Below, in pieces: positions 1,068-59,847 of a DNA stretch of 64,000 nt. The stretch lies in the sequence record MH533020.1, one strand, 5' to 3'. The notes below the pieces were generated by a model. It had not been told where the DNA came from and did no database searches. It saw only the letters and a list, made by a program, of their open reading frames with translations. A program made the translations under genes and the position numbers. Source of the stretch: Acinetobacter phage ABPH49. Each line of letters starts with the position of its first letter. Positions within the stretch are counted from its first letter, which is position 1.

Positions 1068-1269
1068 CTAGAAAAATTTTTCGCCCTCCCCTCTTCTGAT
1101 ATAATACGATCGGAAATTTAAAAAATCGATCGAGATCCTAAAAATTTTTCGCCCTGCCCTTCTGTAGATTACGAAACCGAAAATGAAAAACCGATCGAGT
1201 ACCAGAAAATTTTTTCGCCCTCCCCTGCCCGGGGTATTTCGATCTCGATTTTGAAAAACCGATCGAGAA
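1068..1269. repeat. Three tandem direct repeats of about 66 bp (AAAATTTTTCGCCCTCCCC ... AAAAACCGATCGAG)
   Basis: Units at about 1068-1137, 1138-1202 and 1203-1269 share both end motifs with a variable ~20-bp core. The region is non-coding; only a spurious antisense ORF covers it. Confidence 0.75.
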
Positions 1270-1284
1270 CTCAAGTTTTTTTTA

Positions 1285-1500
1285 ATCCCACGAGGTTGGT
1301 AGGAGCGGGCCGATGGAGACCCTTCCGGTGGGTCAAGGTGTTGGGATACGTGGCGAAGTTATCCACACTTGGAGGTAAGTGGGTGGTAAGCTGTAGGTGG
1401 ATGGAGGCCCTGAGTGGGTGATTACCGGCAACCGAGTGGCCGCCGGGATCTCAATTTGAATCTCGATTTGGATTTGATTTTGATTCAGGTTTTATAATAT
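1285..1500 (+). other. G-rich non-coding tract (GGTGG/GGAGG-rich) followed by GATTTG and AAATATC micro-repeats
   Basis: Strongly strand-asymmetric G-rich composition with no ORF; the AAATATC repeats run into the 3' end of the 1512-2291 gene. Confidence 0.35.
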
Positions 1501-3017: not shown

Positions 3018-3456
3018 CTTTCTTTGCCGGTGCGATGAAGTAGTTCTGACCCTGTTTCACTTGCACAAAGAAGCCACGGAACCACACGCTACCGTCCAGC
3101 ATGTCTGTATTCATAGCCACATCGTACAGATCGAGGGTTTCACGGGATGGGCGCATGGTGGCCGTCAGAAGAGTGTCGAATGCACTCATTGAAAGCTCGT
3201 ACATGTGGCCGTCTTTGTCTTCCAGATGGATGTTGGCTGCGCTACGCCCACGGCTGTAAGTGTTGTAACGGAGTTCCAGCTTCCGACTGATGTGCTGATC
3301 CACAATCTTGTGCGTCTGCGAAGGCATCCAGTGATATTTGTCCCGATCCTCCTCGATCCGGATGTCGCCTTCCCAGCCAGTATACCACTTGCCGTCTTTT
3401 TCCCCGCCATCGTAAACTACCGCAGGATACTTTCGTTTGTTCAGCTTTTTGTTCAT
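3004..3456 (-). CDS. Hypothetical protein (150 aa)
   Basis: ORF with a GGAGG RBS (ggaggtaaaATG). Confidence 0.65.
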   Translation of the reverse strand: MNKKLNKRKYPAVVYDGGEKDGKWYTGWEGDIRIEEDRDKYHWMPSQTHKIVDQHISRKLELRYNTYSRGRSAANIHLEDKDGHMYELSMSAFDTLLTATMRPSRETLDLYDVAMNTDMLDGSVWFRGFFVQVKQGQNYFIAPAKKDERD

Positions 3457-6383: not shown

Positions 6384-7661
6384 CTATTTGAATGCACTCG
6401 CCATCGATGCATATCGCGCCATGTACATCGAGACGATATTCGACAGGTCTTTCACTTTTCGCAGCAAGCTGGTGATCAGGTTATCGCCACGCAGTGGGTT
6501 CATGTCCAGAATCGCCTCTTCCTCTTTGGCAACCTGACGCATCAGCTTCATGGAGACAGCAATGATCGAGTCCTTGGCTTCATGGATGTGGTTTTTCATC
6601 ATGAATTTCAGGAAGTTAGCTACACGACTCAGGAACTCGTCGTTGCTGTACTTGTCGATATTCATCACATCTTTCTTCAGCTGGCGCAGGCAGTAATACA
6701 CCAACACGGACACCAGATCGATCTCGTTAGGTGCCAGTTTGTTTTTGTGCTCTGTTACCTTCCCGCTGAGTACGTCCTCGGCGTCTGGAAGCTTCTTAGA
6801 CCGCACGTGGTGGTCCATCAGGGCAGTTACCATGTCTGAACCAACCAGACCTTGAATAGCCACTTCTGCCAACTCACGGTCCAGCTCTCCGGCATCATAA
6901 TCATCGAGAACATTGCCGCAGTCTACCAGTTGGCGAGGTGACGAGAAGCATGGCCCTTCGAAGCCTTGTGTACCAACCAGATGGCCGGTATAGATTTTGT
7001 CCGGGTTTTTCTTGATGAAGGTTACGACGCTCTGGTGCACGTTCTGAGGAACAGCGAAGTCCTCGATCCACACAGTTGCGTTATAATCAACCTCAACAAT
7101 CATCATTCGGTTAACCAACGGACCCAACAGCTCGGTTGTTGCACCGTTGTCGCCCGGGCGGTTACCAGCACCGATAAAGACGGACTTCGGGAAGGTGAAC
7201 TCGCCGATACGGTGATCCAGCATGATCTGGTATGCCGCCTGTTGACACGCCGGGCTGGCGTTTGTCAGCTCGTCAAGGAAGACGAATCCGCGCCAGTTTG
7301 GGTCGGTAGGCCAGAAGCTTGGCGTTGCGTACACGGTTCTGACGATAGTCTTTCCGTTCTCGACAACCTCAACTGGGATCTGCACACCGGCCAAGTCGGC
7401 AGGTTCTTTATCCGACAGGCGGATATCACAGACTGACCCCCACGACGTACCGATGTAATCTGGGAACATCTCCGCCGCGAGTTGGGCAATCTTTTGGGAT
7501 TTACCAAGACCGGCACCGCCGAAGAAGAAGATCGCCTTGCCAGTTTTGGCACAGTGTTTGATCAGGGGTTCCATCTGGCGCATGGTTATGCGACGAGTGA
7601 AGATGTTTTGCTTTTTGTACTGAGCCACAATATTTCCTCTTTCATGTGAATGAGGCCCCAT
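6384..7661 (-). CDS. MoxR/CobS-like AAA+ ATPase
   Basis: Walker A GGAGLGKS, Walker B VFLDELTN, sensor/Arg-finger region AGNRPGDNG. Lies directly upstream of the VWA protein. The start is uncertain: ATG at 7661 with an AAGG RBS, while the track uses a TTG at 7688. Confidence 0.8.
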   Translation of the reverse strand: MGPHSHERGNIVAQYKKQNIFTRRITMRQMEPLIKHCAKTGKAIFFFGGAGLGKSQKIAQLAAEMFPDYIGTSWGSVCDIRLSDKEPADLAGVQIPVEVVENGKTIVRTVYATPSFWPTDPNWRGFVFLDELTNASPACQQAAYQIMLDHRIGEFTFPKSVFIGAGNRPGDNGATTELLGPLVNRMMIVEVDYNATVWIEDFAVPQNVHQSVVTFIKKNPDKIYTGHLVGTQGFEGPCFSSPRQLVDCGNVLDDYDAGELDRELAEVAIQGLVGSDMVTALMDHHVRSKKLPDAEDVLSGKVTEHKNKLAPNEIDLVSVLVYYCLRQLKKDVMNIDKYSNDEFLSRVANFLKFMMKNHIHEAKDSIIAVSMKLMRQVAKEEEAILDMNPLRGDNLITSLLRKVKDLSNIVSMYMARYASMASAFK

Positions 7662-19680: not shown

Positions 19681-20118
19681 ATGCGATTATGTGCCACTCT
19701 GTTGGCCTTTACACTGTCTTTGGCACCAGCTTTATCGTATGCCCAAGAGAGTGCAAAGAAACCCCATCAGCGCGTCATACACACGTGCAGCACTAAAGAC
19801 AACTCGACGTATGCCCTTGCCTGCAACATCTACAAGGAGGCCGAAGGAGAGGGTCTGGAGGGGCAAATGGCGATCGGTTTTGTGACGATCAACCGGGCGC
19901 AGCATGATAAGTTCCCGACGTCGGTCCGAAAAGTAGTTTACCAGCACAAACAATTCAGCTGGACAATCTACAAAAACGGGTATAAGATTCGTAATCAAGA
20001 GGTGTGGGAACAGAGCATTAAAATCTCTAAGTTCCTGATAAAGATAAGGAATATGCCGGTGCTGTATAATTACCTTGACAACACACATGGTTCCCTGTAC
20101 TTTCACACCACGCAATAA
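19681..20118 (+). CDS. Secreted SleB-like cell-wall hydrolase (signal peptide + Hydrolase_2 domain); endolysin candidate
   Basis: N-terminal signal peptide MRLCATLLAFTLSLAPALSYA. LACNIYKEAEGEGLEGQMAIGFVTINRAQ matches the SleB/CwlJ catalytic region. GGAGG RBS. Confidence 0.7.
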   Translation: MRLCATLLAFTLSLAPALSYAQESAKKPHQRVIHTCSTKDNSTYALACNIYKEAEGEGLEGQMAIGFVTINRAQHDKFPTSVRKVVYQHKQFSWTIYKNGYKIRNQEVWEQSIKISKFLIKIRNMPVLYNYLDNTHGSLYFHTTQ

Positions 20119-20194
20119 AGCCTTACTGGTCAAAGTCTTTTAAGAAGACAGTGGTGATCGGTAACCACCAGTTTTATAAACTAAAGGAGCCATC

Positions 20195-20437
20195 ATGAAA
20201 GGTCGTCTGTTCAAGTCCCTCAAGTCACTGCAAATCGTTGCAATCTTCCTTGCACCAATGGCGATTTGGATCTTCGTGGGACAGTTCGTCGCAGGGATGT
20301 TTTTCTCCGGCGTGTACGCTGAACACCCAAGCATCGTGCCGTTTATGTTCATGGCTGGGTTTGCAGTTGGACGCATCGCAGAGTTGGTAATGTGCGGCAT
20401 GGTGGAAGTATTCAAAAGAAAAGAGGGGATCGAGTGA
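20195..20437 (+). CDS. Small membrane protein (80 aa, 2 TM)
   Basis: AAGGAG RBS; hydrophobic helices. Confidence 0.55.
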   Translation: MKGRLFKSLKSLQIVAIFLAPMAIWIFVGQFVAGMFFSGVYAEHPSIVPFMFMAGFAVGRIAELVMCGMVEVFKRKEGIE

Positions 20438-33525: not shown

Positions 33526-33927
33526 ATGTTAGAACTTAAAAATTGGGTGGAGTTCACGAAGAAATACCCACCGGCGGAGATCTTCTTCCAGCAGAACAAA
33601 GAAAAGCAGGAGAAGCGCTGCAAGCAGCTGTGCGAGATCCTTTTCACACTGGAGCCTACCAACAGTGATCACCCGGCGGCAAAGCTGCGCCTGATGTGGC
33701 AATGGTGGCGTGAGTTTGAGGTCCTTCTCAAGCTGGGCATCGACGACATGAAGCGCGAAGAGGTCGTCACCACGGCAGCTTGCTTCAAGCAGACGGCAAA
33801 AGATGCCATCCGGCTGATGGAAATGTATTACAAGGCTGATCAGTACCTGTGGGCGCATTATCAAACCGGCGGCATCTCTATCAAGAAGATGACCGAACTT
33901 GTCGAAAAAGAGATTGGGAGGGGTTGA
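33526..33927 (+). CDS. Hypothetical protein (133 aa)
   Basis: GGAGGAAGA RBS. Confidence 0.55.
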   Translation: MLELKNWVEFTKKYPPAEIFFQQNKEKQEKRCKQLCEILFTLEPTNSDHPAAKLRLMWQWWREFEVLLKLGIDDMKREEVVTTAACFKQTAKDAIRLMEMYYKADQYLWAHYQTGGISIKKMTELVEKEIGRG

Positions 33928-33928
33928 G

Positions 33929-34366
33929 ATGGAACATTATTTAGTTTCTCACAAAGACGGGTTCAAGGGTATTCAGGACATCATTACGATCTGCAACAAT
34001 GGCGACCTCCTTACCTATTCCAAAGAAACCCGGTGGGTGAAGTGTCACCTGTGGTCTGAAGATTACATTCGTGAGCACGGAGAGCGGATCTCCCGCTATT
34101 CGTTGAAAAGTTCAGGCATCACTCCGCCAGTCCGAGATTTTAAGGATCTGGCTTGGGAGTGGAATGAAGAGCGTCAAGAATACCATGCAGTTGCCCACAT
34201 TCAGGGCTATGTAGACCTGATTATCTTCCACGATGGGTCTGACTGGTGCCTGCATTACGAAGACCGGGACCCTAGTGAGCTAATCTTCAAAGGTGAGTTT
34301 TATCAGCTTCAAGATAAGGCCCAATCTCTTCACGAAGAGTCTTTGATGGCTGAATTCTTCGAATAA
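33929..34366 (+). CDS. Hypothetical protein (145 aa)
   Basis: GGGAGGGG RBS 5 nt before the ATG at 33929. Confidence 0.55.
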   Translation: MEHYLVSHKDGFKGIQDIITICNNGDLLTYSKETRWVKCHLWSEDYIREHGERISRYSLKSSGITPPVRDFKDLAWEWNEERQEYHAVAHIQGYVDLIIFHDGSDWCLHYEDRDPSELIFKGEFYQLQDKAQSLHEESLMAEFFE

Positions 34367-43295: not shown

Positions 43296-43555
43296 AGGAA
43301 AAGTATGAAATACAAATGTTCGACATAGTCAGGATTATCTGTGTCGACGAACACGGGTTTATGCGGGACGTTGTTAAAACAGGTGTCCCGCTAGATGAAG
43401 ACCTCGTTGTCGTTGAGATTTACCACGACATCCGCTTCGGCTGGCGATATGTGGTAGGTGAAGGGTCTTATCCTTTTGACGTCTACGATGTTGGGGAGCG
43501 GGAGATTTACGAAGTTAATCATCCCCCGGAGGTATTCCATGTCGCAAAATACTAA
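43289..43555 (+). CDS. Hypothetical protein (88 aa; GTG start)
   Basis: GGAGG RBS 7 nt before the GTG at 43289. In-frame part of the track ORF 43130-43555. Confidence 0.4.
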   Translation: MVKEKYEIQMFDIVRIICVDEHGFMRDVVKTGVPLDEDLVVVEIYHDIRFGWRYVVGEGSYPFDVYDVGEREIYEVNHPPEVFHVAKY

Positions 43556-53507: not shown

Positions 53508-55007
53508 TTAGATGATCTGGCTGAACGTCACATCTTCCAGCGACAGAGAGAACAGCTGGTTGAATTCAGCGGTAAAGTCAGCGGAAGTGTACTCGTCATC
53601 TGGTGCGTCACGGTCCTTGACCTCAACGATGATCTTTGTGAATCGCCCGGCGTTGACCGAGATACCCACAGCGGAAACCAGCTGAATGTTGTACAGGGTG
53701 TCGGAGATGTTGAGCGAGTCAACGATCTGTTTAAGACCTGCGGCAATATCCTGCTCTTCCGTCATCGCAACAGGACGACCTTGATATCTGACACGAATAG
53801 CCAGTGGGCGGCTTGCAGCCTTGGAGTGGTAAATCCTCTCCTCTTCCCCGTCCTCAGTAGCCACATCAAGGAACACATCCCCGTAGGTGTTGTTCGACAG
53901 CGCGATGGTGTCGTACAGAACCCGGCTAATCTGCTCGGTAGTTCCACCGTAGCAAACAGTCATGAAGCGGTATGGAGGGATTCCGAGGGCGTTAGTCGAT
54001 CCGGTGTTGTTGTTGAAGATCCTTACCTTCTCCAACCCCTCTACCTTTTCTCTCAGGGCAGAAAGAACCGCTGATCGGGTTGCCTTACCTTGAGTGACGA
54101 TAGTGAGTGCTCGAATCTTGTACTCGTTGTCTGTTTCGACATCAGATCCATCTGTGAATGCACGGAGGTTCGTGATTGAAACAAAACCAGCTGGAGTTGG
54201 AGAGATGCTGCGAACAGAATTGCTTTCACGTGAGATTTCTCCTGCCTCTACGGCGATACAGTCGAGGGTGATCGTCTTGTTGCCCACCAGAGGGGTGAAG
54301 CGAAGGTCGACACGGCTCGACAGGCCAATCATGTTCCCAGTCGCATCGTACCCGATCAGCATACCACCGGCAGCGGTGTTGATGAGGATTCTGTTATCGT
54401 TCTCGAGGATGGTGTTCTCCACGATGAAACGCTTGATGTTCGACATGAACGTGTTCAGCACCGGGTTGTTCGGTGTTTTGTTCGTCAGGTTGTAGGTGAA
54501 GGTCTTGGTCGTCTGGTCGTTCATGTTCTGAATCGTCAGGCGGTAAGTACCAACAGACCACATCTGGTTCGTGATCTCCATAGCAATGATGTTGCCAGCC
54601 ACCTGAGTGTCATTGGAGAATTCGAAGTTACCATCGTCAATGGTGTACGCGGCTTGCGTGTAGACCATGTTATATGGTACGGTATTATCAACAGTCATTT
54701 CCACCTGACCGGTACCTTTTGTCTTACCTTTGCGGAAAACACCGCGCTTGGCAAGCAGGTCGTCAAGGTAGATTCCCTCAGCACCATGAATGGTTTGAGC
54801 CGAGTAAACGTCGGCCATCAAGGCCCAGAGTTGATATTCCCTTTCGTTGAAGATAGAGCTGAATTTGTCAGCAATCGAGTTGTTTTGGGTGTTGAAGTTT
54901 TCACCAAAAACGGACTTCATCGCCGCTTTAGTTTCTGCGGAAAGATCCGCGAATGCTGGCAGCTCAAAGCCTGCATCGGTAAGACCGTATTTGACGTCAT
55001 TAGCCAC
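53508..55007 (-). CDS. Baseplate wedge protein, J-like (499 aa; GTG start)
   Basis: Position and size; loose similarity to the P2 gpJ N-terminal pattern. GGAGA RBS. Confidence 0.6.
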   Translation of the reverse strand: MANDVKYGLTDAGFELPAFADLSAETKAAMKSVFGENFNTQNNSIADKFSSIFNEREYQLWALMADVYSAQTIHGAEGIYLDDLLAKRGVFRKGKTKGTGQVEMTVDNTVPYNMVYTQAAYTIDDGNFEFSNDTQVAGNIIAMEITNQMWSVGTYRLTIQNMNDQTTKTFTYNLTNKTPNNPVLNTFMSNIKRFIVENTILENDNRILINTAAGGMLIGYDATGNMIGLSSRVDLRFTPLVGNKTITLDCIAVEAGEISRESNSVRSISPTPAGFVSITNLRAFTDGSDVETDNEYKIRALTIVTQGKATRSAVLSALREKVEGLEKVRIFNNNTGSTNALGIPPYRFMTVCYGGTTEQISRVLYDTIALSNNTYGDVFLDVATEDGEEERIYHSKAASRPLAIRVRYQGRPVAMTEEQDIAAGLKQIVDSLNISDTLYNIQLVSAVGISVNAGRFTKIIVEVKDRDAPDDEYTSADFTAEFNQLFSLSLEDVTFSQII

Positions 55008-55079
55008 GGCTGATCTCCAGTTGTTAATTTAGGCAATAGTCGTATTTTACCATGTTTGTCAGTAAATTGAAAGAAACGC

Positions 55080-55112
55080 CCATAGAAAAAGGGACCCGAA
55101 GGTCCCTTTGAA
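55080..55112 (-). terminator. Intrinsic terminator AAAGGGACC-TTCG-GGTCCCTTT + T5 (minus strand) after the tailspike gene
   Basis: Seen directly. A possible TGgTAAAAT extended -10 promoter follows at about 55035-55065 on the minus strand. Confidence 0.65.
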
Positions 55113-55113
55113 T

Positions 55114-56511
55114 TTAGGCTGGTGTGCCATCCATCTTTATCCAAGACATTGGACTGTTAGATTTTAGGCAGATTGGGATGCCAAGCACTTTGTCGAAGAA
55201 AATCATTCCCTCGGGTCCCGTTGTCGGTCTAGTTTGTCCAGACATCGGGATAGACCTTGCAACTTGGTCTATAAAGGCCTTCACCTCAAACCAGTCCACA
55301 TTTACCGCATGGTTTGTCCCATCTGCATTGGAGTTTGTCGCTCTAGACCAACCGATCACCGCGTAGTTGGCCGGGGTTGTTAGCCCCAAGGCTGTAGGTT
55401 TTGAGCTGAACACGAAATCCCCAGCCTTATAAAACGATCCGACAGTTGGCATTTGTTCAGAGAACAAGACTGAATTAGCTGTCGTATGCCAAGAGCCGGA
55501 GCTTCTTGACCGAATGTCGACACGGCAGGTGCTGTCTATTGTTACTTTGCCACCACCTGCCCATCTGTACCCCTCAAATCCAACACCTGTTATCGTTGTT
55601 CCGCCAGACATCGTCAGTGTACCTGTTGAGTCGTCTGACCACACCCCTCTTGAGTTGTCAAGGCTGAGCTGTATCTCAACGCCCTGTAGGTGTACATCGG
55701 AGTTAGCACCAGATCTGGCCCTAAATACCGCACGCTGTGTACCTGCCTTACCGACGTTGTAAAACTTGCAGTTGCTTACCCGGATATGACTGCCGAAACT
55801 GATGGCATCTCCCGATAGGTTATTGAACGTTGCATTGTTCAATACCACCTGAGATGCTGGAGAGGTCTGATAAAACAGACATCCACTCAAGTCCGTCTCC
55901 ACAAGGCCTAATGTTCCTGCCGAAGCACCTGTGAATTTACCCCCATCAACTACAAAAACCCCACCGTAGTTCTGGGCAAATATCGGGCGACTACAGATAT
56001 CTGCATCACACTCTACCAAACGGAAAGAATCGGACGACCCATTGTATCTCTCCGACCGGAAGTAGTAGGCAATCTTGTATCCGAAACAAAATAACCTGAA
56101 CGCCGCCGCGAAGTCTACCCTGCCGAAATGAAATCCTGTGGCGTTATCAAAAATCCACTGCTTCAAGTCCTGAGCGTATTCATTTTCCTTCCCGAGGTAG
56201 ATGTTGTAATTCCAGTGTATGTCTGAAATCCTTGGGATATCTAGACACCTGTCAAGAGACAACCCTCGACCTATTGGAGCGCCAACAATGTTACGTATAA
56301 CTATCTTACTGGAACTACCGATATTTGTAGGTGTCTGACCACCAAACATCATGGCGTAGTATGAATTTCCTACGTTCAGGTCCTCGAAGAGTGATTCAAA
56401 TCCAGACCCAGAGAGCAGAGGTTTGTACGCAACCACTCCCTTTTTAGATAGGTCATAAGTCTGCTTCGAATACCAGAAGCTCACCCCAGAAACTACGTTT
56501 CTGGACGTCAT
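55114..56511 (-). CDS. Tailspike, right-handed beta-helix (pectate-lyase-like) body (465 aa as annotated; probably the C-terminal part of a split gene)
   Basis: Beta-helix-like repeats (NATFNNLSGDAISFGSHIRVSNCKFYNVG...). The ATG at 56511 has no RBS, and the same frame is open with no stop for a further 85 nt upstream, merging into the 56597-56848 ORF after a 1-nt shift. Confidence 0.7.
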   Translation of the reverse strand: MTSRNVVSGVSFWYSKQTYDLSKKGVVAYKPLLSGSGFESLFEDLNVGNSYYAMMFGGQTPTNIGSSSKIVIRNIVGAPIGRGLSLDRCLDIPRISDIHWNYNIYLGKENEYAQDLKQWIFDNATGFHFGRVDFAAAFRLFCFGYKIAYYFRSERYNGSSDSFRLVECDADICSRPIFAQNYGGVFVVDGGKFTGASAGTLGLVETDLSGCLFYQTSPASQVVLNNATFNNLSGDAISFGSHIRVSNCKFYNVGKAGTQRAVFRARSGANSDVHLQGVEIQLSLDNSRGVWSDDSTGTLTMSGGTTITGVGFEGYRWAGGGKVTIDSTCRVDIRSRSSGSWHTTANSVLFSEQMPTVGSFYKAGDFVFSSKPTALGLTTPANYAVIGWSRATNSNADGTNHAVNVDWFEVKAFIDQVARSIPMSGQTRPTTGPEGMIFFDKVLGIPICLKSNSPMSWIKMDGTPA

Positions 56512-56596
56512 GAAGAATTGCGAGGTACTGACATCCTCATGGTCAATAATGAACGTGAAGCTCCCTCGCCCGCCAGCGCAAATAATCCCAGTCCCG

Positions 56597-56848
56597 TCAG
56601 AAGATGAAATTACTTGTTCTCAGGGTTACCTTGCCGCCAGAGGGGGCTGAGATTGTCCTCCCTGTATCACTCGAAGCCTTGATTGCTTGACGAAGGCCGT
56701 CATCGCCGGGTATCACGCCGGAAACATCGCAGTAATCCTCCAAGTGAATTACACCGGTCAGGAGGTGAAGCTTATCCAGATCTTGCTGCAATTCCCCGGT
56801 TGAGGACGCTGTCTTGATCATCCATGCTGGAACTTTGGTTGTTGACAT
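56597..56848 (-). CDS. Tailspike N-terminal fragment (83 aa) terminated by TGA; separated from the beta-helix body by an apparent +1 frameshift
   Basis: Strong GGAGAG RBS. ...VIPGDDGLRQAIKASSDTGRTISAPSGGKVTL resembles the pectate-lyase-fold N-terminal cap (GDGxTDDT.A.Q.A.....GG.V). Deleting one T near 56597 fuses it to the downstream frame (...NFIFDGTGIICAGG...). Confidence 0.55.
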   Translation of the reverse strand: MSTTKVPAWMIKTASSTGELQQDLDKLHLLTGVIHLEDYCDVSGVIPGDDGLRQAIKASSDTGRTISAPSGGKVTLRTSNFIF

Positions 56849-56893
56849 ATCTTTCTCTCCTTTACCGCCCCGAAGGGCGGCAATGTTGTCTCG

Positions 56894-59230
56894 TTATGCG
56901 GCTACCACGGTATTATCGTAGAATGTTCTCCACGCTGCCCCGTCGTAGAATACTGGGACTCCAGTCCCTGCACCCACTGCTTCTCCTGCACGCCGTCCGT
57001 TGGTTGCGTACATCATTCCGCCGACAGATGCTGAGGTCGGGAGTTCTGCAACTTTTACAGAGGCTGGGGCCACCTCACGTTTAGATACCAAGCTCCCGTT
57101 GTTGGTGATCCTCAAAGCCTGAGAGGTGTTTGGTGTTGAGAAAGCCAAACCTCCGTGAGAACCTCCACCAGAAACAATACACTTATTACCCGAACTGTCC
57201 TCAAGTTCGAGGTTGATTGATGCACCCCCGGGACCGGTTCTGACAAAACCAACACCTTGGGCGCTGTACGTCACGACCCTGATCGGTGCCCCGCTCTCGC
57301 CACTGGTACCAAACTCAAGGGTGTTTGATGCAGAGTTATGATAAATCAGACTCTGCCCTACGGTACTAGTGTCCCCGCCGATACGTACCCTGAACCCTTT
57401 GCCGAGGTGCAGCACCGAATTCGGCTTCAAGATTCTTACGTTTCTGTTCAGGTCTACATGCCCGCTCTCACCCCCATAGCTCTGGTCGTAAGGACGGATG
57501 TACAAAGCAGGTGTTTGAGCACCGGTTCCGTCGTAGTTATACAGCGCAAACCCCCGGTTACCAATCCCAGACCCATATGTTCCAAGGGCGAGATTGTCCG
57601 CCGACATGTTAAACACGCTCTGACCGTTGAACCTGATCCTTGGGTCATACAGCGTATTTCCGTCCAACCTAATCTCTGCCGAAGATGCAGCAGCGGTACC
57701 CTTCAAACTTGCAAGGGGCTGCGTCATCGCCTGTTTGTTGCCGGTATTGAACTCAATAACCATGCAGTAGACATCGGAACGGGAGTCAGAGTCATCAACC
57801 TTTGAGGGGTATGCAACAAGGATCCTATCCCCGAACAATACTGCGTGTTGTACACCACCAACCCCAGCTGCTGCCTGATACCCCGCACTTGTGCTGGTTA
57901 GCCTTTTCACTTCAGATCCTGTATCGAAATCTCGGGAGAATGCAGAATCCAATGGGCATTTCCTGACATAAAGGCCAGATTGCACCCCTTTAGGGTTTGC
58001 ATTATCGTATCTGTTCGAGTAAAAGAACCAGACAGATTTGAAGTCTGGGGTGAAGACCGGGGTAATTGGGTTTACACTGAACGGCATCGGGAATTCCGCC
58101 GCGTCAGAAATAGACTCAAAACCTTCTGTGGCTACCCATGCTTTGCACTTCGAGATGCCAACGTTCTGAGAACGGGACACAACAAGGATCTGGCCCGTGT
58201 CAACCCTACGGAGGAAGTTAAGTTCGCATTGAAGAACCGCCCCGTTGTTATTGTTGTTCGCCGCAGACAGCAACACCTTAGTAGTGTAAGACCAGTCCGT
58301 AGGATCCACGATCAGGATCCCGAGGCTCCCAACCGCGTCGTGGTAACCGCAAGCAAATTTCCCATCCCCCAAAAGGACAAAGCCGTGGTAAGCGACGATG
58401 TCCCTTCCCGTGTCTGGAAGGAAATCAATGGCTTTTACTTCTTGCCACTGCACTCCGTTATTTGACGAAGTGTAGATTGAATGACGGATTGGAGCTTGGT
58501 CATTTGTGCCTTTTCTGAATCTCACAATTGAAACCAAGGTCCCATCAAGCAAGGCCCCGAGTGACCAAGCACTTGCAGCCTCTGTGCTTGTTCTTGGTGC
58601 AATGGTTCTTACCTTTCCGAAGTCAATCCCGTTTCGTGTGCCGACAATCATCGCATCACTAGCAATGGTTCCGTGACCGGAGGCCAAGTTGAAGCCGAAA
58701 TAAGCCCGATCCCCGACAACAACACCCTTCCCCTGCGGCCAGTTTGAGAATCCAACACCAAAGTCGGTAACCCGTGTGGAGAAGTTACCGAGAGCCTCGA
58801 CAGGGTCTTGGATCATCTTCTGGACTTCGTCGTAAGTTGGGCTGGGGTCAGACGAAGAAAGTCCAACAGCCACCAGAACTTCCTCGCCAACTTTCAGCGC
58901 ATCCTCAGGTTTAAGGACAATCTTGTTGTTTTGTACAGAGTACGCCCCAAGCTCTTCAAGTTGGAGAACACCCCCTCTGAACAGTAGGGCCTCCTTGAAA
59001 ATCAAGGAGGGTGACAACTCTACTTCACCGCCCGTGGCTACGTATGTCCAAGTTTCCAGTTTCCCGCCTGAACCTGAACCTCCAGAGATTTTAGACGCCT
59101 TGACCTTCTTTGTCACCCCTTTCTGGTCAACCACGAAGACATCATCAGCTCCGATGGTGCTCGCCTCTGGAAGGTCTGTGATCTTAATCAGAGTCAGGTC
59201 TTCTGCACCTACATCAACCAAAGTTCCCAT
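56894..59230 (-). CDS. Large tail spike / fiber protein with a sialidase-like beta-propeller module (778 aa)
   Basis: Asp-box/BNR-like YTSSNNGVQWQEV and further S-x-D-x-G-like repeats in the central region. N-terminus typical of baseplate-attached spikes. GAGAGAGG RBS. Confidence 0.65.
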   Translation of the reverse strand: MGTLVDVGAEDLTLIKITDLPEASTIGADDVFVVDQKGVTKKVKASKISGGSGSGGKLETWTYVATGGEVELSPSLIFKEALLFRGGVLQLEELGAYSVQNNKIVLKPEDALKVGEEVLVAVGLSSSDPSPTYDEVQKMIQDPVEALGNFSTRVTDFGVGFSNWPQGKGVVVGDRAYFGFNLASGHGTIASDAMIVGTRNGIDFGKVRTIAPRTSTEAASAWSLGALLDGTLVSIVRFRKGTNDQAPIRHSIYTSSNNGVQWQEVKAIDFLPDTGRDIVAYHGFVLLGDGKFACGYHDAVGSLGILIVDPTDWSYTTKVLLSAANNNNNGAVLQCELNFLRRVDTGQILVVSRSQNVGISKCKAWVATEGFESISDAAEFPMPFSVNPITPVFTPDFKSVWFFYSNRYDNANPKGVQSGLYVRKCPLDSAFSRDFDTGSEVKRLTSTSAGYQAAAGVGGVQHAVLFGDRILVAYPSKVDDSDSRSDVYCMVIEFNTGNKQAMTQPLASLKGTAAASSAEIRLDGNTLYDPRIRFNGQSVFNMSADNLALGTYGSGIGNRGFALYNYDGTGAQTPALYIRPYDQSYGGESGHVDLNRNVRILKPNSVLHLGKGFRVRIGGDTSTVGQSLIYHNSASNTLEFGTSGESGAPIRVVTYSAQGVGFVRTGPGGASINLELEDSSGNKCIVSGGGSHGGLAFSTPNTSQALRITNNGSLVSKREVAPASVKVAELPTSASVGGMMYATNGRRAGEAVGAGTGVPVFYDGAAWRTFYDNTVVAA

Positions 59231-59847
59231 CAGTTTCCTCTCTCAATTAGTTTGCCGTCTTGGGTAGAGATCCCTCTACCGTCTTGTGTGCCAATACCAG
59301 ACCTTGTTGCCGTGATTGGGTCTTGGACTGACCATTTGTTATACCATGTTGCATCACCGTAGATCGGGAGTCGGAAGTTGATCAAGTAGTACAACTTATT
59401 CTGCCATTTAATCCACTGGTTATCCCCGCACAGGGTTACGCCATCTTCTGGGGGCGTTGGATAAGCAAATTGGCTACTTCCTGTGAAGGCGATGTTGATG
59501 TCTTCACCTTCGTTTGTGGTTACCGTCATGTAGCATTCGTAGCTACGACTAGAGGCTTCCATTGCAGAGTTAAAGCTGGTAATATCAATTACGTCCGGCT
59601 CTTCTCTGACCGTTTGTTTGATTCTTCCATCCAGCACCGACTTCATGACCTTTTTGGAAATGAAAGTCCGGTATGGGAACCCAAAGGATTCGTCGAAGAA
59701 CCAGTCACCTGCCCAAACGCTGAATTTGATCCACAGTCGCTGGCGCAGGGAGATTTGGTTGGAGGTGATGAGGTTCAAACCATCACCCGAGATATCCAGA
59801 TCCCCGGTTACCGGGTCCATCTGGAGATCAGAAAACAGAGTTGGCAT
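59230..59847 (-). CDS. Baseplate protein with a gpW/gp25-like N-terminal domain (205 aa)
   Basis: N-terminus ...DPVTGDLDISGDGLNLITSNQISLRQRLWIKFSVWAGDWFFDESFGFPY follows the gp25/W pattern. AAGGAGA RBS; TGATG overlap. Confidence 0.55.
   Translation of the reverse strand: MPTLFSDLQMDPVTGDLDISGDGLNLITSNQISLRQRLWIKFSVWAGDWFFDESFGFPYRTFISKKVMKSVLDGRIKQTVREEPDVIDITSFNSAMEASSRSYECYMTVTTNEGEDINIAFTGSSQFAYPTPPEDGVTLCGDNQWIKWQNKLYYLINFRLPIYGDATWYNKWSVQDPITATRSGIGTQDGRGISTQDGKLIERGN

Follow-up and report, generated by a model that had tools for sequence, protein, structure and literature searches.

The tailspikes CBA120 TSP3 (6NW9), HK620 (2X6W) and Sf6 (2VBK) have in common a beta-helix fold, which is also predicted for the protein described here from Acinetobacter phage ABPH49. 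Unlike these intact beta-helix tailspikes, the ABPH49 gene is broken into two annotated genes, gp238 and gp237. In a 2024 review ABPH49 gp237 (Sf6-like beta-helix) and gp239 (K1F-like sialidase) are treated as two tailspikes and a trimer model of the 465-aa gp237 piece is reported, while nothing is said of gp238 or of a frameshift (PMC11126041). The closest sequences are the "tail fiber" proteins of the gp196 type from the phages Moabite and 2050HW, and a protein from an uncultured Vequintavirinae-like phage (P0002). The difference from these lies in the attachment module, which in ABPH49 is a short MSxxKVPxWMI adaptor, whereas P0002 and Moabite have anchors of ~130-210 aa instead.

In bacteria and phages +1 frameshifting is known to take place at CUU-U in prfB and at CCC-U in Listeria phage PSA, and UGA followed by C is a weak stop in enterobacteria, as in prfB CUU UGA C. 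The ABPH49 site shares with those of E. coli prfB (CUU UGA C) and of the capsid and tail genes of Listeria phage PSA (CCC UGA) the 0-frame UGA, with C after it, and the continuation in the +1 frame, but it lacks the slippery re-pairing codon, the upstream stimulator, the downstream structure and the conservation. Receptor-binding genes do become inactivated during laboratory propagation. Deposited phage genomes also contain homopolymer-type indel errors, which the ABPH49 record MH533020 resembles in having 1-nt indels at short runs, with frames intact. The tailspike site differs from these errors in being a TT doublet or non-repeat that needs an insertion, while the others are mostly deletions in G/C runs.

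Here we analysed a 64,000-nt stretch of record MH533020.1, referred to as the window. The 83-aa and 465-aa open reading frames annotated as gp238 and gp237 are pieces of one right-handed beta-helix tailspike. The split itself is most probably not biological, and the phage would have here, in slot 2 for spikes of a Vequintavirinae baseplate module, an unremarkable beta-helix tailspike of 577 aa.

Organisation of the locus

The tailspike gene lies on the minus strand, in the tail and baseplate region, between the slot-1 spike gene gp239 and a Baseplate_J / baseplate-wedge gene. The features of the locus, in window coordinates, are as follows.

56894..59230, minus strand: slot-1 tailspike, 778 aa, AXN57970.1 (gp239, exact match), with an N-terminal virion anchor and a sialidase-like head
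56864..56881, minus strand: GC-rich hairpin GCCGCCC-TTCG-GGGCGGT without a T run, between the slot-1 gene and the tailspike ribosome-binding site (RBS)
56861-56857, minus strand: Shine-Dalgarno AGGAG of the 83-aa ORF, 8 nt 5' of the ATG, as read from the sequence
56848..56597, minus strand: N-terminal ORF, 83 aa, ATG start, TGA stop at 56599-56597, AXN57969.1 (gp238, exact match)
56605-56597, minus strand: frameshift site ATC TTC TGA, the interval that holds the 1-nt excess (or 2-nt deficit)
56512..56598, minus strand: the gap that separates the two annotated ORFs; its +1 frame is coding (DGTGIICAGGRGSFTFIIDHEDVSTSQFF) and is part of the first beta-helix coils
56511..55114, minus strand: body ORF, 465 aa, AXN57968.1 (gp237), beta-helix body and C-terminal domain
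55114..56848, minus strand: reconstructed single tailspike gene, ~577 codons after removal of 1 nt near 56597-56605
55086..55106, minus strand: intrinsic-terminator-like hairpin GGGACC-TTCG-GGTCCC followed by TTTTT, directly 3' of the tailspike stop, as read from the sequence

The body ORF is read in frame +1 with respect to the 83-aa ORF (56848-56511 = 337 = 3x112+1). This frame is open in the 5' direction as far as 56619, its own stop being at 56622-56620, so that the 85-nt gap is open throughout and the 0 and +1 frames overlap by 23 nt. The only GAGGA 5' of the body ATG at 56511 is ~22 nt away, too distant to serve, which leaves the body ORF with no usable RBS, and no in-frame ATG, GTG or TTG is found for it upstream of 56511. 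The layout given in the initial annotation, with a strong RBS for the 83-aa ORF, none for the 465-aa ORF and an open gap, is thus borne out by the ORF coordinates and frames. Its estimate of ~550 aa for the joined protein was too low: the length is 577 aa, because the 28 codons of the gap are coding.

The deposited junction sequence is ATCTTCTGACGGG, and the 83-aa product as deposited ends in TSNFIF. Removal of one T at the junction gives a continuous protein that reads TSNFIFDGTGIICAGGRGSF, while removal of one T of the TT doublet gives NFISDG. The hairpin at 55086..55106 is visible by eye, though a consensus terminator scan does not list it.

One gene in homologous phages

All homologs are continuous through the junction (15/15, comprising 7 protein homologs and 8 IMG/VR loci). 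The 7 intact protein homologs, taken from a large protein collection, are 575-998 aa long and 40-64% identical; Moabite gp196 is 40% identical and P0002 64%, in both cases over more than 90% of the length. A tblastn search of phage records with the joined protein found Serratia jumbo phages, Moabite and 2050HW among them, each matched in one piece over residues 52-576, and the pairwise alignment with Moabite gp196 shows no interruption at the junction. The matches to the 8 IMG/VR loci are likewise in one piece and span residues 83/84. The comparison with orthologous tailspikes that the initial annotation had proposed therefore gives 15/15 unbroken genes and none with the same split.

The alignment also locates the lesion. 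Frame 0 supplies TSNF and the invariant I82, and the +1 frame fits the homologs from D84-G85 on, which confines the lesion to ATC TTC TGA (56605-56597). The gap-encoded FIIDHEDVSTSQF aligns with the intact homologs, in which I101, H103, Q110 and F111 are invariant. A chance pattern of ORFs was considered and rejected, since residues on both sides of the junction and in the gap align with intact homologs. The initial proposal, made from the reading frames, that changing one base at the TGA would yield a single protein agrees with both this alignment and the model of the joined protein. The 465-aa ORF is 100% identical to a protein of the collection that is itself from ABPH49 (P0001), and a tblastn search with the 83-aa ORF found no match in a phage collection that apparently lacks ABPH49.

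Fold and domains of the joined protein

An AlphaFold2 (AF2) model of the 577-aa fusion, built as a monomer, predicts a continuous beta-helix with pLDDT 83-93 over residues 31-170 and 80-93 for the gap-encoded part. Regular beta strands run from residue 65 to 437. Most 10-residue blocks over residues 31-430 have a mean pLDDT of 73-94, with dips to 48-65 at ~172-177, 211-220 and 261-271. Strands 81-83 and 87-90 flank the junction, which places the break inside the first coil of the helix. The 83-aa ORF comprises the adaptor (residues 1 to ~30, MSTTKVPAWMI...), a cap helix at 49-62 and the first beta strands at 65-83.

The top matches of a Foldseek search of the PDB are CBA120 TSP3, the AlgE epimerases AlgE4/6, HK620 and Sf6 (E 1e-6 to 1e-4), while Pfam and PHROGs profile scans of the fused protein assign no family. 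The joined protein is thus predicted to have a right-handed parallel beta-helix fold. On both points of structure the initial annotation, made from the sequence alone, anticipated the model: the tailspike matches agree with its beta-helix tailspike, and the cap helix agrees with its description of the 83-aa ORF as having an N-terminal cap.

Indels elsewhere in the same record

The window and Serratia phage vB_SmaM-Kashira (Vequintavirinae) were aligned as nucleotide sequences, which are 96% identical over 81% of the 24 kb tested, and the Kashira proteins were compared with the window by tblastn. Many 1-nt indels separate the two sequences, and five other conserved genes are frame-split in the window. 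Two more carry paired shifts that compensate each other. The affected genes are listed below with window positions and the change from Kashira.

KASHIRA_02410, 8235: CCC to CC, frame-split
KASHIRA_02480, 11736: G5 to G6, frame-split
KASHIRA_02660 (endolysin), 20113: GG to G, frame-split
KASHIRA_00310, 44588: CC to C, frame-split
KASHIRA_00350, 45871: CC to C, frame-split
KASHIRA_02380, 6450/6469: paired, compensated shifts, with TT to TTT at 6450
KASHIRA_00270, 43522/43701: paired, compensated shifts, with an extra T at 43522

Protein identity on each side of the five splits is ~98-100%. The endolysin agrees with Kashira at 100% both over residues 1-144 and over residues 145-172, yet these two segments are read in different frames. 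In 394 phage records this 172-aa protein finds a match, joined into one place, at >=80% coverage; ChuuTotoro and phiTE are among the best 12 of the 394, all of which align without a break over 97-100%. Flanks that are perfectly conserved yet out of frame are the hallmark of indels introduced by base calling or assembly. The initial annotation had counted the tailspike as the third such event in the window, which is an underestimate: at least five other genes are split, in addition to the two with compensated double shifts.

The clear errors in the record are mostly 1-nt deletions in G/C runs, with insertions at 6450, 11736 and 43522. The frame breaks are otherwise unrelated and have no motif in common. 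Not all differences from Kashira are ABPH49 errors, since at least one indel, at 34194, favours the window, where ORF 33899..34366 fuses KASHIRA_00080 and KASHIRA_00090. With ~10 in-CDS indels in ~55 kb the expected rate is ~0.3 events per 1.7-kb gene, so one indel in the tailspike gene is unremarkable.

Origin of the frameshift

The reading that we favour, with a probability of about 0.72, is that the split is artefactual and reflects an erroneous indel of one nucleotide in the ABPH49 assembly as deposited (MH533020). It is the best supported because 1-nt indels interrupt no fewer than five further conserved genes, with protein identity of ~98-100% on both sides. There would be one base too many in ATC TTC TGA, most likely a T called as TT, and the true sequence would have one base fewer in ATCTTCTGAC. 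Candidates for the original junction are ISDG, IFDG or, in the case of a 2-nt deletion, a sequence with one extra residue restored that is present in all homologs. An insertion (or 2-nt deletion) at a TT doublet or non-repeat fits only a minority of the indel profile of the record. We infer that the lesion originated in sequencing or assembly and not in the phage. The phage would then encode one ~577-aa tailspike, translated from the strong RBS at 56861-56857, in which residues 1 to ~30 may form a short adaptor for docking to the baseplate or to the adjacent spike, residues ~31-445 the body, a right-handed parallel beta-helix with putative depolymerase activity, and the rest a C-terminal domain. 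Such a protein, of ~62 kDa, would yield the tryptic junction peptide TSNFIFDGTGIICAGGR or TSNFISDGTGIICAGGR.

Sequence collections were searched for a near-identical copy of the junction site, and none was found in the phage collection, IMG/VR, JGI metagenomes or GTDB genomes. By megablast against the phage collection the flanks match and the junction does not; IMG/VR, scanned for the exact pattern with 2-5 nt permitted at the site, returned nothing, and scans seeded with protein gave no close relative in IMG/VR, JGI metagenomes or GTDB genomes.

A real frameshift, arisen recently in the sequenced stock and inactivating the second tailspike, is unlikely, but it is not negligible. The deposited sequence encodes exactly such an inactivated tailspike: an 83-aa adaptor-cap stub would be made, and the body, with neither RBS nor upstream in-frame start, would be translated barely or not at all and could not attach to the virion. 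The phage would then rely on the sialidase-like gp239 spike and other fibres, and with these further genes it could do without one spike on the host used for propagation. The required insertion is, moreover, at a non-G/C site, unlike the commonest type of error in the assembly. Against this, the body frame has 493 open codons with no other lesion and keeps 112/121 homolog-invariant residues (the leave-one-out range of intact homologs is 0.87-1.0), so the inactivation would have to be very recent; a decaying pseudogene was rejected on the same grounds, there being a single lesion and conservation within the intact-homolog range. Further, breaks of this kind affect no fewer than five other conserved genes, the endolysin among them; they would not be expected all together in a viable lytic phage, which makes an artefact the more economical explanation for each. 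A tailspike with an intact frame would give a junction-spanning peptide, TSNFIF/SDGTGIICAGGR.

The remaining explanations take the deposited sequence as correct and the gene, or its pieces, as functional. In programmed +1 frameshifting at UUC UGA C the ribosome would pause at UGA-C, shift by +1 and decode GAC, giving a mixture of 83-aa and 577-aa products. The geometry is right for this, in that the 0-frame stop directly overlaps the +1 codon GAC, UGA with C after it terminates poorly in enterobacteria, and the frames joined exactly at the stop give a sequence that can be aligned with the homologs. The slow stop is, however, only half of what such a site needs: tRNA-Phe on UUC cannot re-pair on the +1 codon UCU, where the middle position is mismatched, no Shine-Dalgarno-like or purine-rich element lies within 15 nt upstream of the shift site, and the 91 nt downstream fold no better than shuffled sequences (z = 0.44). 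A shift at the junction occurs in 0/15 homologous genes, and the other frame breaks of the window are unrelated to this one in sequence. We regard this mechanism as very improbable, and an unconventional +1 shift at UUC UGA C that makes the second tailspike without tRNA re-pairing as just as improbable. If the latter were true, it would set a low, regulated ratio of full-length to 83-aa product, and the fragment could compete for the docking site.

Still harder to credit is a genuine spike of two polypeptides, the 83-aa and 465-aa products associating non-covalently, or a phase switch toggled by a repeat. The split falls near the boundary region between adaptor-cap and body, and GenBank annotates gp238 and gp237 as separate proteins, but the break is within the first beta-helix coil and not between domains, separate translation of a body ORF that has no RBS would leave 28 conserved codons untranslated, and there are no split homologs among the 15. 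Neither the site nor its surroundings contain a simple-sequence repeat: no run in 56597-56619 is longer than TTT, and a TRF scan over 56400-56900 found nothing. Stop-codon readthrough or a suppressor tRNA was also rejected, since the frame would stay broken, and no tRNA gene is present in the window. Among the options that the initial annotation had left side by side, sequencing error is thus the one with the best support, whereas phase variation is disfavoured for want of a repeat tract and +1 recoding for want of re-pairing and of a stimulator.

Consequences for the ABPH49 record

The entries gp238 (AXN57969) and gp237 (AXN57968) should be treated as a single tailspike of 577 aa. What has been published on gp237, the description as well as the model, uses the 465-aa piece, which is missing the adaptor, the cap helix and the first coils (PMC11126041). 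MH533020 as a whole has several frame-breaking indels, including that in the endolysin, so that studies of gene content or depolymerase mining would miscount genes and truncate proteins. If the frameshift were real, the sequenced stock would have lost one of two tailspikes, still by an ordinary inactivating mutation, and this would bear on the disputed host assignment of ABPH49, which resembles Serratia phages. The suggestion that the split directly affects host range holds in that case only.

Baseplate module and related phages

Two contigs from the Logan collection and the Kashira genome help to place the tailspike within its module. In one contig (L005) the gene order is the same as in the window. 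P0002, the closest homolog of the tailspike (64% identity), occupies the first spike slot of this contig, where it is fused to a 145-aa anchor, and the N-terminal 145 aa of gp239 are 39% identical to the P0002 N-terminus (E=3e-25). The slot-2 protein of L005 starts MSVVKVPSWMI... and is homologous to the tailspike over residues 1 to ~40 (E=5e-6), being otherwise unrelated to it. In the 83-aa ORF a slot-specific adaptor is probably followed by the first part of a beta-helix module, one that would have moved between slots, because the slot-2 protein of L005 starts alike while the beta-helix homolog P0002 is in slot 1. A slot swap of a beta-helix module is ordinary receptor-binding protein shuffling.

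The tailspike N-terminus is also conserved in the second contig (L008, Logan SRR29074712), which was found through the gp239 cluster, shares the gene start and encodes a gp239 of 92% amino acid identity. Over 77 codons the 83-aa ORF differs from L008 by 29 synonymous and 5 non-synonymous codon changes, which indicates that the N-terminal piece is under purifying selection. The contig, which represents the one close relative, stops at codon 77, 21 nt short of the TGA, and is uninformative on the junction itself.

Relative to Kashira the stretch from ~55131 to 59313 has been replaced; Kashira has there a 707-aa protein and a 251-aa "glucanase". Identity to Kashira resumes at the post-tailspike hairpin, and 55000-55131 is 96% identical. 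The GC-rich hairpin at 56864..56881 is kept in L008 as well, and L005 has an analogous hairpin 5' of its slot-2 gene.

Single-nucleotide indels across the ABPH49 record

When the window was compared with Serratia phage vB_SmaM-Kashira (Kashira), a 96%-identical relative, short homopolymers were found to contain 1-nt indels that split five conserved genes between two reading frames. Protein identity to Kashira remains approximately 98–100% on either side of each split, and one of the five genes (window 19681-20195) encodes an endolysin/cell wall hydrolase.

Sites of frame-splitting 1-nt indels relative to Kashira (window positions)
8235
11736
20113
44588
45871

Two further genes carry paired, compensating shifts relative to Kashira, at 6450/6469 and 43522/43701. 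Taken together, the split genes and the paired-shift genes suggest that the ABPH49 record suffers from systematic indel errors, as judged from this sequence comparison. At window 33899-34366 (+) there is a single 155-aa ORF in the window where Kashira is annotated with two overlapping genes, KASHIRA_00080 and KASHIRA_00090; the C-run at 34194 is one C longer in one record than in the other. For this difference, either the Kashira record may be in error and the window correct, or the difference between the genes may be a true one.

The receptor-binding cassette and its relatives

The two-gene receptor-binding cassette (window 55131-59313) is wholly replaced relative to Kashira. The beta-helix module occupies slot 2 in the window and slot 1 in the uncultured relative L005 (8001-11735), where it is fused to an anchor of the type found in gp239, the slot-1 spike of the window. 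Each slot has its own conserved N-terminal adaptor, MGxLVDVG... in slot 1 and MSxxKVPxWMI... in slot 2. A second uncultured relative, L008 (Logan SRR29074712 contig, 3289 nt), contains a gp239 counterpart with 92% amino acid and 81% nucleotide identity, together with the start of the slot-2 gene of the window; the contig stops 21 nt short of the frameshift site in the slot-2 tailspike.

The nearest relatives of both window tailspikes are from Serratia phages or uncultured contigs. The record is named as an Acinetobacter phage but is 96% identical to a phage of Serratia marcescens. The assignment of ABPH49 to an Acinetobacter host looks doubtful, a doubt that has also been raised in PMC11126041.

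Possible non-coding elements

Directly 5′ of the slot-2 spike RBS, three divergent phages have a GC-rich hairpin whose loop is of the UUCG type and which lacks a T-run.

Positions of the GC-rich hairpin
Window, 56864-56881 (-)
L005, 10085-10102
L008, ~3025-3045

This hairpin may act in RNA stability or processing, or may serve as a weak terminator separating the two spike genes. In the region of window 1082-1290, the motif (G/A)AAAATTTTT(T)CGCCCTCCCC is repeated at ~1072-1092 and ~1205-1225, and may represent a repeated regulatory element or terminator. Kashira has no gene annotated in this stretch, and the T-run lengths there are unlike those of Kashira.
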